Made by a program: the position numbers and the translations under genes. This document shows, one piece after another, positions 2,537 through 55,906 of a DNA stretch of 64,000 nucleotides (positions are counted from its first letter, which is position 1; each line of letters opens with the position of its first letter). The stretch is from a cyanobacterium endosymbiont of Rhopalodia gibba (GTDB lineage: Bacteria > Cyanobacteriota > Cyanobacteriia > Cyanobacteriales > Microcystaceae). Location: assembly GCA_045159875.1 (NCBI GenBank), contig CP067995.1, positions 2,848,001-2,912,000 on the forward strand, given 5' to 3'. Under the pieces are notes generated by a model. It saw nothing but the letters and a program-made list of their open reading frames with translations, did not search any database and was not told where the DNA came from.

Positions 2537-4182
2537 TTAATTTAACCTCGTTTTTTGAACTCATGTGTATCCTTGTATTCTAACATTCACTATTTTAACT
2601 CAAGTCTTTAAAAGTTTTTATTATTGTTTAATAAAACTATTAACTATTATTATAATAATAACCTAATTTATTTTAATTAACTATTTTAAATAGGTTAAGA
2701 AGGTTTAAATCTTAATCCAAGAAAGAATTGATAAGGTTCCAGGTGCATCGTTTTTTATAAAAATGGATTTCCGAAATTAGATTCTAATCTAAACTTCATA
2801 AAAGTACTTGATATAAATTACTTTTTATACAAAGATTTTTCTAGTTTTTTATAAAAAAAGCACCAGAAAAATATTATCTCCTAATTACTTTAAAATTACC
2901 TAAATTTTTAGTGTATAAAAATACACTACTAATATAGTCAGCAACTAATTAAAATATCTCTTGTAATTTCTTTTACTTGTAATTTTTTTTAAGTTTATAT
3001 ACAAATATTTTTATTTTTTAGATATTTCCTCTAGGTATTCCTATTTTAAGATAATTTATATAAAAATTTAGATAAGTAAAAGTTACATAACGATTGAGTT
3101 TTTTTATAAACATCAATATAAGGGTGTGATTGGACAGACTTTTTATCTTGGGTTAAAAAATTAACTATTGCTTAGATAAAATTTATTTGTTTCTATTTTT
3201 GAGAATTAAAATGCTACTACTCATCTCTCACCATTTAATTCTGTTTAAAAGCAAATTTTAGAATATCTAGTTCATGTTTAATGAATATAATTTGGTTAAT
3301 TTTATAATTTTTAGCTTTTTTAAAAAGAGCGCTACTATTGAAGTAGTAATAAAATCCTATATTTAACGAATACTGAAATTTTTTCTAAACTTTTAATTGT
3401 CATCAAAACTTATGTATGATTTTTTTAAAACTATTTACATTATTTTAAAAAAATTTTCTCTTAAAAGATGTTTTATTCTAGATTTTATTGATTAGCTTTT
3501 TTGTTAGTTTTATAAACTATTTCTTGAATAAACTTATGAGCTCTAACAATTAAATTCTATCACTTCATTAATCAAAATCAACTTATTTATCTATTTATTT
3601 AAATTGAGCTTACTATATTTCATGATGGTTGAGATAATTTATAAACATAGGAGACATTTATAATATTGCAATAAATATAGAATATATCTATTCAAATAGA
3701 GATCTACTAGCTTTTATTTTTACTTCTCTTTAAATTTTATCTTTAATAAATCTATTTTAAAATTAGGATTATTGATGTTAATATATTTTAAATATATTCT
3801 TAGTCCACATATATTATTCCAAAATAAAACTAATTTTTGATGGCTTTACAATAAAACAGATGACCTGGTTAGCTTTAAGTATAATTGCATATTTACCGGT
3901 ATTTTATATTTATTTAAATATCTAAAATAGTTTTCTTTGTAAACAAGAAATTATCCCAAACTTTCTTAGGATAAGCTTTGTTAGATTGTGCATATTTTTG
4001 TCTAAGTAATTTTAACAAAAATATCGTTTTCTCTCTATTTTTAATTGAATAGCTGATAAGAAGAGCAAATTATTATAGTTTTATAACTAGATCGCTATAT
4101 ATTAATTTTTCCAGGAATTATCCTCGATTAATTATCAAATTTTGTTTTCAGTGGAAATTTTTTTGGAATACGGCTAAAAATT

Positions 4183-36396: not shown

Positions 36397-36434
36397 TAGT
36401 TTGCTATTTTTAAACGTGAGTTTGACGAAAATTT

Positions 36435-37060
36435 ATGGAGAGAAATAAAAACAATATATTTACACCAGAAGTAGTATTTATTGAGGTCTAGTATCATAGA
36501 TATAAAATCTGTTTTCAATCTCACTGAAGCATTTTGTAATCTAGAACGCTTTCGTTAAATATTTGAACAGCATTCTCATTACGTTCTTCAATTGAAAAAT
36601 TGACAGCGCATATTAGAGAAAGAAGATATTGTTCTCGTTTAAAAATAAGTGAAACTATGACTTTGAGGACCCAGGATATATTGTTCAGCAATTCTTTGAT
36701 ATGAAACTATTTTAGAACCCGGCTATTTTAAGTTTAAGAAATTCGAAAATTCAAAATAAATTTTACTTAAAAAAGTGGCTTTTTCTTTGGACATTGTAGC
36801 AAGTAGAAAAATGAATTTAATAAAACTATTTGAGTTCCCCCGTCGGTCTATTTTTACTGTCGCTAAAAGAAAAGGAATAGAACACCCTATTTTAATTTTA
36901 CAGTATCTTGTTTTGATTATTTGGGAAAAATAGTAAAAGGTACAAGAGAAAACCCAAGTAAAGCTTTAGAGTTTTTACTTTTCGGTGAACTCGAAGCAGT
37001 GTATTTTTTACTTTGTGCCTCCTGTTTTACCTCTGACTGTATTATTTAAACTTATCAATA
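36435..37060 (+). pseudogene. unidentified pseudogene
   Basis: fragments EAFCNLERFR*IFEQH, YDFEDPGYIVQQFFD, RRSIFTVAKRKGIEHPILIL and KALEFLLFGELEAVYF with stops and frameshifts. Confidence 0.45.
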
Positions 37061-48919: not shown

Positions 48920-49795
48920 TTGTCGATGTCTTCTTCAACTTCTTTTATGTTAAATGGTAAGGCTTTAGCAAAAAAAATTCAGTGTAAACTCCAATCCTGG
49001 GTTCAAAAGCAACAACCCAGGATTGGCCGTCCTCCAGGGTTGGCAGTATTGATGGTAGGGGATGATCCGGCTAGTACTGTTTATGTCCATAACAAAGAGC
49101 GGGCTTGCGCTAAGGTAGGAATTGTTTCTTTTGGTCATCATTTCCCGGCTAATATCTCCCAAGACGAATTAGAAACCGTTATTGGACAACTAAATCAAGA
49201 TCCGCGAGTAGATGGGATATTAGTCCAGTTACCTTTGCCCGTCCATTTAGACGCAGTACAATTGTTATTGACTATTGACCCCGATAAAGATGTTGATGGT
49301 CTTCATCCGATGAATTTAGGACGGTTAATACGTGGTGAACCAGGGTTACGCAGTTGTACTCCCGCCGGGGTGATGCGTCTATTAGAAGAAAATCAGATCG
49401 AAGTGGCAGGTAAACACGCAGTGGTGGTAGGAAGAAGCATTTTAGTGGGCAAACCGTTAGGGTTAATGTTACTTGAAAAAAATGCTACAGTGACTATGGC
49501 TCATTCTCAAACCCGAGATTTACGAAATGTGACCCGTCAAGGGGATATTTTAATTGTTGCAGTAGGTAAACCAGAGTTCATTAACGCAGACATGGTTAAA
49601 CCTGGGGCAATAGTTATTGACGTAGGAATTAATCGTGTTGTTCGATCAGATGGAACTTCCCAACTGCTAGGGGATGTGGATTTCAACTCTGTGGCTGATA
49701 CAGCGCAATATGTTACGCCAGTTCCTGGGGGAGTAGGTCCGATGACTGTAGCGATGTTATTAAGCAATACGGTGTTAAGTTATCATCAACGGTAG
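48920..49795 (+). CDS. folD: methylenetetrahydrofolate dehydrogenase/cyclohydrolase
   Basis: [42 protein letters not shown]. Confidence 0.97.
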
Positions 49796-49800
49796 ATACT

Positions 49801-50321
49801 ATGAATGAATTTTTTTAGAATTATACCTGTGAGTTATCCCAAGGGAAAGCCTCGCAGGTGTCCATTATCCCTGAGCAGGATGATGTAGACTTCGATTTGA
49901 TGATTTAAAGAGCCTGTAGGGAATATTATTACCCAATATATATAGTATTAATACTGATGCCTACCGTACATTTACGAGTTTTGTAAGTGGAACCTATTTA
50001 TTTAGAGTCACATCGGTTAAAGAAAGTTGTAAGTTTGCTATTGATGTTAGCCTAGTAACAATTCTTTTTTCTCGTAATTATTCCCATCATCTTGAAAATA
50101 GTGTTGTTTGGAAAGTTGCGGTGATTCCCACCGCGAAGAGCATGGATTTTAATCTTTATATTGAAAATCCCAAGGACCAAGCAATTATTCAAGATAGTAG
50201 TTTCGAGCCTTCTGCAACTTGTGTGTTTACTAGTAATATTGAAGGGAACTATTCTTTTCTGCTTAAATTCCTTAAAGGAATGAGAGATTTTAATTTTCAA
50301 ATTGAGGGATTGATAGAATAA
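49801..50321 (+). pseudogene. hypothetical protein pseudogene (3' part still open at 50121-50321)
   Basis: VSIIPEQDDVDFDLMI* and ...VIPTAKSMDFNLYIENP... fragments with stops. Confidence 0.5.
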
Positions 50322-50346
50322 TTTAATGAAATTAAGTGTATCCACA

Positions 50347-50405
50347 AGTTATCATGAATCCCCAAATATTTAAAATAACTAAATATTTGGGGATTCATGA
50401 TAACT
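50347..50405. repeat. perfect inverted repeat, 26-bp arms, 7-nt spacer
   Basis: agttatcatgaatccccaaatattta-aaataac-taaatatttggggattcatgataact. Confidence 0.97.
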
Positions 50406-50537
50406 CTTTTTAAGATGATAAAATCAGAAAAAATTCAACTTATTATTTATATCTTCTACTAGTTTTAGAGGGTTTTTTGATCAAAAAATACAATAATTTT
50501 TCCAATTCAACACTTAATTATTTTACAAATTTTTAAC

Positions 50538-50589
50538 TACAATAAATAAGCTTTTTAGCTACTTTGTGCTAAAAAGCTTATTTATTGTA
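50538..50589. repeat. perfect inverted repeat, 22-bp arms, 8-nt spacer
   Basis: tacaataaataagctttttagc-tactttgt-gctaaaaagcttatttattgta. Confidence 0.96.
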
Positions 50590-51173
50590 CGTCTAATGTC
50601 TAGTTTCAGCTTTACTCAAAAATTATTTTATATTCCTCTTTAGTTTAATTTATTTTTTAAACTTAAATCTTCTTTATTTGTAAGTAAGATATATGTGTTT
50701 TTAATTTCAACCTAATAAATTTTTTTTCAACTAGCTTTTAAACTATTTCACCTCTCGTTTAAGAACTTTTCTTTGATTGTATCATTGAGTATTAATCTAT
50801 TTCATCTTATGAAATCTATCTGCTACTATTTCAACTTATCGCACTAGTTTATTTAAAGGTAAAAAGTAAGCAGTCAAACGAGATTTTATATCTAAAATAC
50901 CAGACCTCAATAAATGCTGCTTCTAGCATAGAATTGATGTTCTACTCTCTTCATAAATTTACTTGCCTCACAGTAACTTAAAGCAGAGAAATTCGCGCCG
51001 TATGCCTGTATAACTTGTGGAGAGAAGTGTCACAAAATTTTCTACAGTTGTTAGACTAATCTTGTTAGGTAGTTCATTAGTATCTTCCCTATCTGGAGTC
51101 TTTCTTTTAAAATTAGAGATCTAAACGCTATATATAGAGTTTACTTTAGTTAGTCTCGGATAAAGAAGGGATA

Positions 51174-54100
51174 ATGAACCATAAACAGGAATGGCAAGAT
51201 AGCGGTGTTGACGAACAATTGATTAATCTCAATGTGATAGCTTTGGAGGGGAATTCTCCTTTAGAGTATTTGTTTTATTCTGATGCACTTTCTAGACGTA
51301 ATGATGGTCGGGTCAATAATTCCATGTTAAAACGCTATGAACATACAGAACGAGGAGGCTGGTGGTGTTCGGGAATAGATTTATTGACAGGCGGCGAGGA
51401 TTTATGGGGGTGTTTCAAACCCAATTCCCCTCGAACCAGTTATGATAAGCACAAGTTAATCAAATATGAGCATCCCCCTAAAACATCTACAGGGGTTTTT
51501 GCCTTGCGGGTTCCATTGCATCTATGGCGACAATTAGCCCAACGCCACCATCAAGATCTTACTCCAGAAGAGATTAATAATCAACTCCCAGATTTAGGTT
51601 TTTGGCAATGGGTGATAAATCATCCTTCGATTCCCCTTTGTATTACTGAAGGGGCTAAAAAAGCAGGGGCGTTATTAACAGCAGGATATGCTACAATCGC
51701 CCTTCCAGGAATTAATAGTGGCTATCGAACCCCTCGAGATAAGTTGGGCAACCGAATCGGAAAGTCTCATCTCATTCCCCAACTCGAAAAACTAGCGATT
51801 TCAGGGAGGAAAATTTATATTGCTTTTGATCAAGATAGTAAACCAAGTTCTATTAAAGAAGTGAATTCTGCTATTAGAAAATTGGGAAGTTTATTCACTC
51901 AAGCAGGATGTCAAGTTAACGTTATTGTTTGGCTACCGAAATGGGGAAAAGGAGTAGATGATTTTTTAGCGCATAAAGGACTCAAAACTTTTAATGAAAC
52001 TTACGAAAAAGCCTTATCTCTAGAAACTTGGAAAGCACAAAGCTTAAGACAACTAACTTATCCTTCTGATCTTGAAGTCAGTACTCGATATTTAGGAGAT
52101 TTACCCATTCCTACAACTGCTAAATTAGTAGGAATAAAATCTCCAATAGGGACTGGAAAAACTAAGGCTCTTGAAAAGATTGTTGAACAGGCAATCACTT
52201 CTCAACAAAAAATATTAGTAATTGGACATAGAGTTAAGTTAGTTGAGCAACTTTGTCAACGATTTAAAATTCCTTATTTAACAGAAATCGAAGGAAATAA
52301 TGTTAGAAATATAAAAGGATGTGGACTTTGCATTGATTCTCTTCATCCTAATTCTTCATTTAAATTTAATCCTAGTGATTGGACAGATAGTCTAATTATT
52401 ATCGATGAAATTGAACAGGTTTTATGGCATGGATTAAATTCAGATACTTGCAAGGAAAATAGAGTTTCTATCCTAAGATCTTTTAAGAAGTTACTTGAAC
52501 AAAGTTTATATTTTAAAGGAAGAATAGTTATTGCTGATGCAGACTTAAGTGACATTTCTCTTGACTATTTAATTTCTTTGATAGGAATTAAATTAAAACC
52601 CTTTATTGTAATCAACAATTGGAAATCTAACAATAAAGAAGCATGGGGAGTATATAATTATCCAGAAACTACCCCCCAAGAGTGGCTCAAAGATTTAATG
52701 CAACATATCCAGCAAGGGGGTAAACCTTTTGTTTGTCTATCCGCTCAGAAATTAACTAGTAAGTGGGGAACACAAACTCTAGAATTCTACTTAAAAAAAC
52801 GATTCCCAGAAGTGAAAATTCTAAGGATTGATTCTGAATCGTTAACTGACCCTAATCATAACGCTTACCAATCTATCAACCACCTTAATCAAATACTATT
52901 AAATTACGATATCATTTTGGCTAGTCCTTCCATTGAGACGGGAGTAAGTATCGATATTAAAGATCATTTTACCTCTGTTTGGGGATTAGCTCAAGGGATA
53001 CAAACTGCTACCTCTGTCTGTCAATCACTAGGACGAATTCGTGACAACATTCCTCGTTATCTTTGGTGTGCTTCCTATGGGTTTAATAAAGTGGGAAATG
53101 GTTCTACTTCAATTCCTAATTTGTTAACTTCTAGTAATCGCGTTACTCAGTTAAATATTAAGTTATTACAACAATCTGACCTAGAAGCCTTAGATGATAT
53201 AGATATAGAATTTCAAGCAGAATCTTTACTTTGTTGGGCAAAAATGGCGGTTCGCGTTAATGTTTCAATGATTCATTATCGAGAGTCTATATTAAGAAAT
53301 ATTACTGACCAAAATCATCCAGTTCTTCGTAAGAATAAAGTTTTCAAAATTCAAGATATAAAAAAATATAAAAAATATTCGTATGATAGTAAAAATTCTT
53401 GTCAATTAATGAAAGCAATTGAAAGTATTAGAGAACAAAATTATCAAGAAGAATGCCTAATGGTTGCCCAAGGCAAGGAGATTACTGATCAACAATATAA
53501 AGCGTTAAATAAGAGGTTAGTTAAAACTGTAGTTGAACGGCATAACATCAAAAAATATAATTTACAAAGACGCTATTGTATTGAAGTAACTCCTCAATTA
53601 GTTGCCTTAGATAATGAAGGATGGTACGACAGGATTCGTCTCCATTATTTCTTAACTTTAGGACGTTCTTATTTAGCAGATAGAGACACTATTCTTGCTA
53701 AAAAATTCATAGAAAAAGGACAGGGTAGTCTTTTTGTACCTGATTTTAATAGTTCTCAATTAGGGGGAATTATTGGGACAATGGAGGTATTGGGAATTTC
53801 GGTGTTACTCATGAACCATAAGCGAAAGTTAAAACCTACAGATGAAGACTTGCAAGCGATGGCAAGAATTGCTATTAAAAACCGCGCTGAAATCAAAACT
53901 ATTATGGGAATTGGTATTGCCAAAAATTCTAGTCCTATCACGATTATACGGCGGTTGTTGGATAAAATTGGCTATGGATTAACTTGTATTGGTTCTCAAA
54001 AAGTTAACAAAAAACGAGTGCGGGTGTATCAAGTTGTTCTTCCTAATGATGCTAGGCAAAAGGTGTTTAGACAATGGTGGATAAGAGATGGAAAATCCCC

Positions 54101-54209
54101 AGGCAGTTCTGAACCTTGGTTTGAAGAATATACAAATATTAAGTCAGAAATAACTAAAATTCAGCAAGAAGAAAATAAAAATTATATTCAATTAAGTTTA
54201 GAATTTTAG
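51174..54209 (+). CDS. DUF3854 TOPRIM-like primase + superfamily-2 helicase (CyRepA1-type replication protein)
   Basis: KYEHPP, ITEGAKKA, IAFDQD, KGVDD; Walker A SPIGTGKT, Walker B IIIDEIEQ, SPSIETGVSID, QSLGRIR. Confidence 0.9.
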   Translation: MNHKQEWQDSGVDEQLINLNVIALEGNSPLEYLFYSDALSRRNDGRVNNSMLKRYEHTERGGWWCSGIDLLTGGEDLWGCFKPNSPRTSYDKHKLIKYEHPPKTSTGVFALRVPLHLWRQLAQRHHQDLTPEEINNQLPDLGFWQWVINHPSIPLCITEGAKKAGALLTAGYATIALPGINSGYRTPRDKLGNRIGKSHLIPQLEKLAISGRKIYIAFDQDSKPSSIKEVNSAIRKLGSLFTQAGCQVNVIVWLPKWGKGVDDFLAHKGLKTFNETYEKALSLETWKAQSLRQLTYPSDLEVSTRYLGDLPIPTTAKLVGIKSPIGTGKTKALEKIVEQAITSQQKILVIGHRVKLVEQLCQRFKIPYLTEIEGNNVRNIKGCGLCIDSLHPNSSFKFNPSDWTDSLIIIDEIEQVLWHGLNSDTCKENRVSILRSFKKLLEQSLYFKGRIVIADADLSDISLDYLISLIGIKLKPFIVINNWKSNNKEAWGVYNYPETTPQEWLKDLMQHIQQGGKPFVCLSAQKLTSKWGTQTLEFYLKKRFPEVKILRIDSESLTDPNHNAYQSINHLNQILLNYDIILASPSIETGVSIDIKDHFTSVWGLAQGIQTATSVCQSLGRIRDNIPRYLWCASYGFNKVGNGSTSIPNLLTSSNRVTQLNIKLLQQSDLEALDDIDIEFQAESLLCWAKMAVRVNVSMIHYRESILRNITDQNHPVLRKNKVFKIQDIKKYKKYSYDSKNSCQLMKAIESIREQNYQEECLMVAQGKEITDQQYKALNKRLVKTVVERHNIKKYNLQRRYCIEVTPQLVALDNEGWYDRIRLHYFLTLGRSYLADRDTILAKKFIEKGQGSLFVPDFNSSQLGGIIGTMEVLGISVLLMNHKRKLKPTDEDLQAMARIAIKNRAEIKTIMGIGIAKNSSPITIIRRLLDKIGYGLTCIGSQKVNKKRVRVYQVVLPNDARQKVFRQWWIRDGKSPGSSEPWFEEYTNIKSEITKIQQEENKNYIQLSLEF

Positions 54210-54387
54210 AAATTTACTTCAATCCTTGATCTTAAAAACTATATTTTGTAGAGTGGATTAGATGAAGGTCAGATTTTGAATAAAAAAATCGTAAGTTCTT
54301 ATCTACGTCGTAATCCCTATGATGGGAAATCAATCCGAGTATACCGAAAGAATTCAATACGAGTGATAAATTACACCATATCTTATG

Positions 54388-54437
54388 CTAATACATCCGT
54401 AGATACCTTGTATACAAGGTATCTACGGATGTATTAG
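54388..54437. repeat. 50-bp perfect palindrome with no spacer
   Basis: ctaatacatccgtagataccttgta|tacaaggtatctacggatgtattag. Confidence 0.97.
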
Positions 54438-54550
54438 GCAAAAAGGGATACTAAGATGCAGATTTGTATGTAGATGATAGCTAGAAATTTTTAGGAGAAA
54501 CTTAATAGAATTGTTGATTAAATTTTCCCTAAATTCTAGAATAAAAAACT

Positions 54551-55906
54551 TTAACGCATGGTCACAAATTCTTCGGCAGAAGTGGGATGAATACCAACAG
54601 TAGCGTCAAAATCAGCCTTTTTAGCTCCCATTTTTACTGCAATCGCTACTCCTTGAATAATTTCGGCAGCATGATCTCCTACCATATGTGCGCCTAAAAC
54701 CCGATCACTTTCTTGATGAACAACAAGTTTCATCAAAGTTTTTTCCTGTTTGTCAGGCAATACATAATACATGGGACGAAACTCGCTACTATATACTTTG
54801 ATAGCATCTTTCCCATATTGTTCTTTAGCTTTTGCTTCAGTTAGTCCTACTGTAGCAGCTTCCGGAGTACTAAACACGGCAGATGGAACATTTTCATAAC
54901 TCATCAGACACGATTTTCCCCCAAATTTAGTGTCAGCGAAGGCGCGGCTTTCACTAATAGCGACGGGAGTTAGATTAATACGATCTGTACAGTCTCCGAC
55001 TGCATATATATTCGGTTCTGCTGTTTGATTATACTTGTCGACAACGATCACTCCATTTTGCACTTTAACCTCTGTATTTTCTAATCCTAAGTTCTCTAAG
55101 TTAGGAATACGCCCAGTAGCAGCCAACCCAATGATATCGGCTAACACCATGTCATTATTGCTATCCCCTTCTAGAGAAATTGTTAAACCTTGGTTTGTTT
55201 TTTTGACTTCAGAGATGGAAGAGTTCTTTAGGATGCGAATACCATGTTCTTCCATAGACTCTTGGATTGTGGTTCGGATATCGTCATCAAACCCCTTCAA
55301 GATTTTATCGCGGCGAATAATCTGGATAACATCTGACCCTAGTCCATGCATAATACAGGCAAATTCTACCCCAATGTAACCCCCTCCCCAAATGACGACG
55401 CGCTTTGGTTGTTCGGGTAGTTCAAACATAGCATCAGAGGTCACTAAATATTCTTTTCCTGGAATGTTAGGTTTAATGGGACGTCCCCCCACAGCAATTA
55501 AAACTTTATCAGTTGTAACTTTTTTGCCATCTCCGACTTCTACGGTATGGGGATCGAGTAATTTACCATGGGTACGATACAGTTGAACATTGGATTTATC
55601 CAACATTCTTTGGTAAATACCATTAAGACGACCAACTTCCCTATTGATAGCGGCTATCATTTTAGGCCAGTCGAGGATACTTTTAACCGGACTCCATCCG
55701 TATCCTTGGGATTCTTCCAAGACTCTAGGGACGTGAGAAGTATAAACCATTAACTTTTTGGGAATACATCCTCTATTAACACAGGTTCCCCCTAGACGAT
55801 TAAATTCTGCTAACCCGACTTTAGTTCCATATTCGGCAGCGCGTCTAGCAGCAGCAATTCCTCCTGAACCACCACCAATAACAAATAAATCAAAATCAAA
55901 ATTCAT
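54551..55906 (-). CDS. gor: glutathione-disulfide reductase
   Basis: GGGSGG, GGTCVNRGCIPKK, GGGYIGVE, GIHPTSAEEFVTMR. Confidence 0.97.
   Translation of the reverse strand: MNFDFDLFVIGGGSGGIAAARRAAEYGTKVGLAEFNRLGGTCVNRGCIPKKLMVYTSHVPRVLEESQGYGWSPVKSILDWPKMIAAINREVGRLNGIYQRMLDKSNVQLYRTHGKLLDPHTVEVGDGKKVTTDKVLIAVGGRPIKPNIPGKEYLVTSDAMFELPEQPKRVVIWGGGYIGVEFACIMHGLGSDVIQIIRRDKILKGFDDDIRTTIQESMEEHGIRILKNSSISEVKKTNQGLTISLEGDSNNDMVLADIIGLAATGRIPNLENLGLENTEVKVQNGVIVVDKYNQTAEPNIYAVGDCTDRINLTPVAISESRAFADTKFGGKSCLMSYENVPSAVFSTPEAATVGLTEAKAKEQYGKDAIKVYSSEFRPMYYVLPDKQEKTLMKLVVHQESDRVLGAHMVGDHAAEIIQGVAIAVKMGAKKADFDATVGIHPTSAEEFVTMR

Follow-up and report, generated by a model that had tools for sequence, protein, structure and literature searches.

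Proteins of the CyRepA family are proven replication initiators (Rep proteins) of cyanobacterial plasmids (PMC10079941, PMC10899382), and the study that named CyRepA1 (Slr7037) and CyRepA2 gives their architecture as DUF3854 plus DEXDc (PMC10079941). Homologues also occur on chromosomes: Ohdate et al. 2024 report them in 80 of 145 cyanobacteria, with a function said to need validation, and according to a supplementary table of that study, two diatom-endosymbiont genomes, UCYN-A, 'Nostoc azollae' and PCC 6803 have a single copy each on the chromosome (PMC10899382). Here we analyse a gene of this kind, referred to as rep, in the cyanobacterial endosymbiont of Rhopalodia gibba. The window, that is, the whole stretch of 64,000 nucleotides that was analysed, is C1:2848001-2912000 of a genome made up of contig C1 (3,058,178 bp, 33.9% GC) and a second contig, C2 (6,464 bp); rep lies at 2.899 Mb of C1, amid housekeeping genes. 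An earlier reading of the letters of this window (the original prediction) had taken rep, three long palindromes around it and the AT-rich DNA upstream for a candidate DnaA-independent replication module, with a domesticated Rep. We consider it probable (roughly 0.6) that rep is a vertically inherited CyRepA1 host gene that works with a conserved pair of upstream sites, Box 1 and Box 2, in autoregulation and possibly in DnaA-independent initiation, and that the palindromes are incidental.

The 1011-aa (amino acid) open reading frame (ORF) is a complete CyRepA1-family protein, a DUF3854/Toprim domain followed by a superfamily 2 (SF2) helicase, with all catalytic motifs intact as judged from its sequence. 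It scores 542.2 bits against the NCBIfam CyRepA1 model NF042913 (cut-off 200), with aa 316-937 covering positions 2-593 of the 595 in the model. The acidic motifs of DUF3854 and the Walker A and DExx motifs of SF2 helicases are all present, and of the family hallmarks plasmid location is missing. The TOPRIM-like and SF2 motifs that had been picked out from the translation were thus confirmed at 51174..54209 (+) by Pfam, NCBIfam and motif columns. The helicase core contains GTGKT, IIDEIEQ, DADLS, ETGVSID and QxxxRxR. Chromosomal and plasmid relatives alike keep TEG, FDQD, GVDD, GTGKT and IIDEIEQ, and across 31 sequences the following residues do not vary: E in TEG, the leading D in both FDQD and GVDD, G and K in GTGKT, and D-E in IIDEIEQ. 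There are further weak matches to ResIII, Toprim and the herpes origin-binding protein (Pfam), to PriA-like models in the helicase part (NCBIfam), and of the DUF3854/Toprim domain to a DNA primase chain (profile search, E 0.025). The Rep of plasmid pSYSA, CyRepA1 (Slr7037) of Synechocystis sp. PCC 6803, has the same full-length architecture and motifs. Unlike the plasmid CyRepA1 proteins described by NF042913, the gene studied here is chromosomal, vertically inherited and slowly evolving, and its replication activity is a prediction only.

To trace the history of rep, we searched for orthologues in 41 genomes (its own and those of relatives) and obtained homologue matches in 39. Full-length orthologues are present in 24 of 24 other genomes of the same family, with identities of 74-91% in the 7 genomes of the same genus and 54-69% in the remainder. 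Full-length copies at 54-58% identity occur in five further families of the order, and in a sixth (G037) the copy is split into two adjacent matches that are 57% and 65% identical. Across a broader set of 251 genomes of the class, copies with at least 54% identity were confined to this order, and other matches were 34-45% identical. Identity to plasmid-borne CyRepA1 proteins is just 39-51%, over about 96% of the length (pSYSA Rep, 39%). It stands out that the gene survives strong genome reduction, as in the 1.5-Mb genome G019, which keeps a full-length orthologue with 61% identity. One genome, G018, has a shorter copy, which ends at residue 971, ahead of the disordered tail; we considered and rejected the possibility that this copy is broken, as the gene just stops there.

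A quick LG+G4 tree of 37 proteins groups the 24 sampled chromosomal copies in one clade (Shimodaira-Hasegawa-like approximate likelihood ratio test (SH-aLRT) support of 100) in which the branching follows kinship; the chromosomal rows were picked as the best match per genome, so the grouping is partly circular. The clade adjoins one plasmid copy and is separate from the pSYSA group. Seven further orthologues (G012, G013, G016, G022, G023, G035 and G037) are omitted from the tree. Gene order around rep is conserved in five reduced genomes, the present one (G000) and its four sisters (G001, G003, G004 and G006), in all four of which the gene is intact and syntenic; it differs in the free-living G007, and G002 shares solely a nearby oxidoreductase gene. 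The ratio of non-synonymous to synonymous substitution rates (dN/dS, NG86) is 0.11-0.19 for all 21 pairs among seven genomes, similar to that of seven neighbouring genes (0.07-0.47). These comparisons show rep to be an intact member of a branch of the CyRepA1 plasmid-initiator family that is old, chromosomal and inherited vertically, and to be maintained as a host gene under purifying selection. Purifying selection and intact copies in the sister symbionts had both been anticipated in the original prediction, whereas domestication peculiar to the symbionts had to be abandoned: the old chromosomal clade also occurs in dnaA-bearing free-living relatives. PMC10899382 assigns no function to chromosomal homologues; the orthologous clade and its selection, and the boxes and the likeness to a viral initiator described below, do not appear in its accessible text.

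The five reduced genomes are readily aligned over the 140 bp or so that precede the start codon. Within these 140 bp lies an element that consists of Box 1, an AT-rich spacer and Box 2, at 51088-51142, or 31-86 bp 5' of the start codon. The core pattern of Box 2 is palindromic (ACNCTA-N4-TAGNGT), and Box 1 repeats its right half. Both boxes are kept in 24 aligned orthologue upstream regions and in G152 and G129 (26 in total), although Box 1 is poor in G032, and the spacing between them varies by no more than one alignment gap column. With 0 mismatches, the pattern ACNCTANATATAGNGT has its sole genomic occurrence at the Box 2 site; with one mismatch, there are 8 other strand-hits compared with 5 for a control pattern. 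The Box1-spacer-Box2 element, and not the palindromes, looks to be the real cis partner of rep. Neither box was found upstream of the 4 plasmid CyRepA1 genes that we examined, or of distant chromosomal homologues in another family (41-43% identity; G201, G266 and G235). One of these plasmid genes, from Chondrocystis, has three tandem 22-bp direct repeats upstream (L057:61-123) that are iteron-like. The distant chromosomal homologues share upstream blocks of other kinds, one of which starts with AAAAATTAATCATGCAC in two of the three.

The herpesvirus origin-binding protein UL9 is a helicase of the SF2 type; in OriS, it recognises boxes on either side of an AT-rich spacer. We built an AlphaFold2 model of the 1011-aa protein from a 31-sequence alignment (mean predicted local distance difference test (pLDDT) of 85, predicted template-modelling score (pTM) of 0.78). 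Its top Foldseek match is the origin-binding protein of herpes simplex virus 1 (HSV-1) on OriS DNA (E 3.8e-14 to 2e-12, about 770 columns), with Mfd and Mtr4 as runners-up at about 1e-8. VIA-align places residues 290-997 of the model on residues 36-843 of the viral chain (Z 22.9, 526 aligned residues), and a second match to the same protein has a Z of 22.1 over 391 residues (root-mean-square deviation of 4.2); SF2 helicases as a whole score at Z of about 16-23, and generic ones reach about 18. A sequence profile compared against solved structures also gives the HSV-1 origin-binding protein as its best match (E 3.5e-6). In the predicted model, the helicase and C-terminal part therefore best resembles UL9 (PDB 9hgi and 9hgj), by sequence profile and by fold. 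The structural match shows a likeness of fold only; identity is just 12-17%, and UL9 is viral and has no Toprim domain. UL9 recognises paired boxes, whereas DNA binding by the cyanobacterial protein is only predicted, although a Box1-spacer-Box2 element exists. The three helices and the beta-hairpin of aa 891-955 may be winged-helix-like and are a candidate DNA-binding module.

We suggest the following mechanism. The protein combines three parts, a Toprim-type primase-like domain, a UL9-like SF2 helicase and a helical C-terminal part, and would bind Box 1 and Box 2 through the last of these. Binding would control the promoter of the gene itself, as plasmid Rep proteins do. Less surely, the same pair of protein and site might open and prime DNA at the boxes, and this might start or restart chromosome replication independently of DnaA. 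A role in DnaA-independent chromosome replication is plausible, and the comparative support for it is mixed.

In keeping with the original prediction, no working dnaA was found in any of the five reduced genomes. Fragments with many stops at C1:2619209-2619965 are a relic of it here, and a search with TIGR00362 did not find it in the four sisters. This genome may therefore preserve a late stage of dnaA loss. With dnaA called by TIGR00362 matches over the cut-off, 31 of the 41 genomes have the gene; the ten without are the present genome (relic), the four sisters, G014, G019, G025, G031 and G039. Eight of these ten keep a full-length orthologue of rep. Related free-living strains are reported to replicate independently of DnaA, and an irregular GC skew is reported for DnaA-independent cyanobacteria (PMC7198777). 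Cumulative GC skew is likewise irregular in this chromosome, with its minimum at 2.006 Mb and its maximum at 1.332 Mb. At 3512, its range is larger than in shuffled 1-kb blocks (1989 +/- 435; such a value is attained in 0.25% of shuffles). The GC-skew minimum, which is outside the window, coincides with the TA-skew maximum (2.012 Mb) and with the gene-orientation minimum (2.011 Mb). A conventional DnaA-dependent oriC is not indicated, as dnaA is a relic and DnaA-box-like sites show no excess; TTATCCACA-like sites number 17 in the window compared with 19.3 expected.

One alternative is that rep encodes a housekeeping primase-helicase for replication restart, gap priming or repair, and that the boxes are an autoregulatory operator with no part in an origin. 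The gene is conserved whether or not dnaA is present, a -10-like hexamer lies between the boxes shortly 5' of it, and the weak PriA-like matches in the helicase part fit such a role. However, PriA and DnaG are still encoded, which leaves no obvious gap to fill, and the nearest relatives by sequence and by fold are initiators, not repair enzymes. We regard this alternative as rather unlikely. The idea that the protein substitutes for DnaB, DnaG or PriA was rejected, since dnaB, dnaG and priA are all still encoded intact in the genome. The DnaB match (G000:C1:124981-127773) spreads 434 model positions over 2793 nt in a 946-aa open frame, which suggests a large insertion; inteins are the typical insertion in cyanobacterial DnaB.

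At the opposite end, the protein and the Box1-spacer-Box2 element could be the chromosomal initiator and origin of the dnaA-less reduced genomes, a pair analogous to UL9 and OriS or to a plasmid Rep and its origin, which would also give the free-living relatives their independence of DnaA. The orthologue is kept in the genome with the dnaA relic and in its four sisters, G014, G019 and G031, where dnaA was not found; the exact box pattern is unique in the genome, and the fold is UL9-like. Plasmid relatives are proven Reps (PMC10079941, PMC10899382), and an integrated plasmid origin took over chromosome replication in S. elongatus after deletion of dnaA (Ohbayashi 2016, as described in PMC7198777). 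That case likewise shows that a plasmid-type replicon in a chromosome can take over initiation, but it was a laboratory suppressor event, whereas rep is an ancient gene that, in free-living relatives, occurs together with dnaA.

Several observations weigh against our main reading, against this strong form or against both. The orthologue is about as common in genomes with dnaA (23 of 31) as in those without (8 of 10), and its presence therefore does not track dnaA loss. Both dnaA and any homologue of rep are missing from G039; G025, also dnaA-less, has just 34%-identical copies on small contigs and a weak chromosomal match. Geminocystis, which is free-living, is reported along with symbionts to lack dnaA (PMC7198777), and the accessible part of the PMC10899382 supplement lists no chromosomal CyRepA for two Geminocystis strains. 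The skew extremes near 2.01 Mb lie about 0.9 Mb from the gene, where the original prediction would have placed them (2.90 Mb). Multiple origins are reported in related DnaA-independent species (PMC7198777), as opposed to the single site here. The genome that is most reduced, G019, has the most degraded Box 2 (4 of 13 specified positions differ), which fits relaxed regulation better than an essential origin. As DnaB, DnaG and PriA are all present, the CyRepA1 protein replaces none of them. A consensus promoter scan, which found 18 promoter-like sites compared with 18.3 in shuffles, did not call the conserved upstream block, and the binding, promoter and replication roles given to the boxes are predictions. 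We therefore hold it unlikely that rep and its boxes form the initiator-origin pair of these endosymbionts, and favour the broader reading of a host gene with an autoregulatory cis partner and a possible part in initiation.

The three long palindromes were confirmed exactly in coordinates and arms (Table 1), and we compared them by aligning the intergenic DNA of the five reduced genomes. At the position of palindrome 1, G006 keeps an inverted repeat with other letters. G006 lacks the DNA of palindrome 2, G003 has it in non-palindromic form, and in G001 and G004 the region could not be aligned. At palindrome 3, a hairpin is kept in all five genomes, with 12 of 25 predicted pairs changed on both sides (5 sequences); no long perfect inverted repeat was found 3' of the gene in G002, G005, G007, G009, G010, G011 or G019. 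Palindrome 3 resembles intrinsic terminators and mRNA-stabilising hairpins in lying between convergent stop codons and in keeping its pairing by compensatory changes. Unlike intrinsic terminators, it is not followed by a T-run, and it may be a terminator-like hairpin; a consensus promoter and terminator scan listed none of the three palindromes. In Rfam, they give just sub-threshold matches to microRNA hairpin models. The possibility that they belong to a repeat family was rejected, as each of the three sequences occurs once in the genome.

Long palindromes are common in this chromosome. It contains 221 perfect inverted repeats with arms of at least 18 nt (218 outside long ORFs) and 94 with arms of at least 22 nt (93 outside long ORFs). 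Three triplets of repeats with arms of at least 22 nt fall within 4.1 kb, compared with 0.66 expected under uniform placement, an expectation that would rise further if placement were limited to non-coding DNA, and 46% of random placements yield at least one such cluster. Because clusters are near the chance level, the bracketing of rep by palindromes is statistically unremarkable. Of the 218 repeats outside long ORFs, 32 lie within 150 nt of the 3' end of a long ORF, compared with 10% of random non-coding positions, which indicates that most are not ordinary terminators of intact genes. Three RNA-library runs and one DNA run contain the stretch as assembled contigs only, and in both kinds of run the contigs break off within the perfect palindromes (50363-50369, 50557-50570 and 54408-54417). 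We attribute these breaks, which could pass for transcript ends, to the assembler; the RNA-run contigs were rejected as evidence of transcription or transcript ends.

The upstream stretch is indeed AT-rich (28% GC), as the original prediction had it for about 850 bp, but this is ordinary for non-coding DNA of the window (20-28% GC), and part of the stretch is a dispersed repeat of about 80 nt. In G006, just about 220 bp separate the stop of the intact upstream gene from the annotated rep start. The dispersed repeat has window copies at 50876-50960 and 36429-36514, and the upstream copy is also present in G001 and G004; it is a candidate for a MITE-like element (miniature inverted-repeat transposable element) or a promoter or small RNA (sRNA) module. 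At 50738-50839 there are three short direct copies of CTATTTCA(N)CTTAT-like words, in DNA that is specific to this genome; the copies are not conserved in its sisters. No iteron or tandem array was found in 49700-54700, where just short two-copy direct repeats occur in genome-specific DNA, and an iteron-type plasmid origin beside rep was rejected for want of a direct-repeat array.

Comparison across relatives shows the three palindromes to be incidental to the gene: two appear to be 3'-end hairpins, and the third a lineage-specific product of decaying non-coding DNA. The part of the original prediction that made them an origin feature accordingly does not hold, as they are not conserved with the gene. 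A model in which the palindromes extrude as cruciforms and form an origin on which Rep acts has in its favour that they are real and perfect and that the upstream DNA is AT-rich, but it is largely refuted by the comparison across relatives and very improbable, given that palindrome 2 is not conserved, that palindrome 1 belongs to a dead upstream gene and palindrome 3 to a convergent gene pair, that seven other relatives have no long perfect inverted repeat 3' of the gene, that G006 has so short an upstream interval, and that clusters are near chance with no iterons or DnaA-box excess.

Table 1. Positions of rep, its cis element and nearby features, counted from the first letter of the window
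Feature	Position	Strand	Evidence or remark
Decayed PPC-domain gene	49792..50321	+	172 aa intact in G001, G004 and G006; frameshifted here; largely deleted in G003
Palindrome 1, 26-nt arms	50347..50405	.	25 nt after stop of decayed PPC-domain gene; terminator-like remnant
Palindrome 2, 22-nt arms	50538..50589	.	genome-specific, in poorly conserved non-coding DNA
Dispersed repeat of about 80 nt, one copy	50876..50960	+	14 further chromosomal copies, 74-88% identity
Conserved block directly 5' of rep in five reduced genomes; presumed promoter, operator and 5' untranslated region with ribosome-binding site	51033..51173	+	alignment
Box 1, CCTATCTGGAGTCTTT, one half-site of type TAT-N-TAG-N-GT	51088..51103	+	24-genome upstream alignment; G152, G129
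TAAAAT, putative -10-like hexamer in AT-rich inter-box spacer	51108..51113	+	alignment; absent from consensus scan calls
Box 2, TAAACGCTATATATAGAGTTT, palindrome; core ACGCTATATATAGAGT at 51125-51140	51122..51142	.	alignment, pattern search
rep, CyRepA1-family primase-like/helicase gene, chromosomal clade	51174..54209	+	intact, 1011 aa; orthologues, dN/dS
DUF3854/Toprim-like domain, aa 143-270	51600..51983	+	Pfam PF12965 E 5e-52; TEG, FDQD and GVDD motifs
CyRepA1 model region, aa 316-937: SF2 helicase core and helical C-terminal part	52119..53984	+	NF042913, motifs, UL9 match
aa 891-955, three helices and beta-hairpin; candidate winged-helix-like DNA-binding module	53844..54038	+	model secondary structure
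Palindrome 3, perfect 50 bp (25+25)	54388..54437	.	between convergent rep and oxidoreductase genes; terminator-like

The genes around rep are all housekeeping genes: those for CoaE, a class-V aminotransferase, an S41 peptidase, a NUDIX protein, FolD, a pyridine-nucleotide disulphide oxidoreductase, PTPS, a CAAD protein and a peroxiredoxin. No integrase, partition or plasmid gene was found among these neighbours, and decay close to the intact gene is evident in the adjacent, frameshifted PPC-domain gene; on both counts the original prediction proved right. ORFs of at least 120 aa cover just 49% of the chromosome, which fits a genome in decay. Contig C2 (6.5 kb, 26% GC) may be a small plasmid; its products are an aquaporin (MIP), FeoA, FeoB, a tyrosine recombinase and a protein of 363 aa that has a weak CopG-like match. 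A terminal overlap, a CyRepA gene and a Box 2-like site were looked for on C2 and not found. The protein as the Rep of C2 was rejected, as a Box 2-like site is missing from C2 and each of the four sisters is a single contig.

In the literature that we searched, we found no paper linking CyRepA proteins to DnaA or to DnaA-independent replication in cyanobacteria. It is an open question how chromosome replication starts in cyanobacteria that have no DnaA or can do without it (PMC7198777). With the conspicuous palindromes recognised as no part of the system, a false lead is removed. The locus offers a concrete, testable candidate: a primase-helicase of the plasmid-initiator type that stays intact in genomes that shed dnaA, and an adjoining conserved element that resembles a binding site and whose exact core pattern is unique in the genome.

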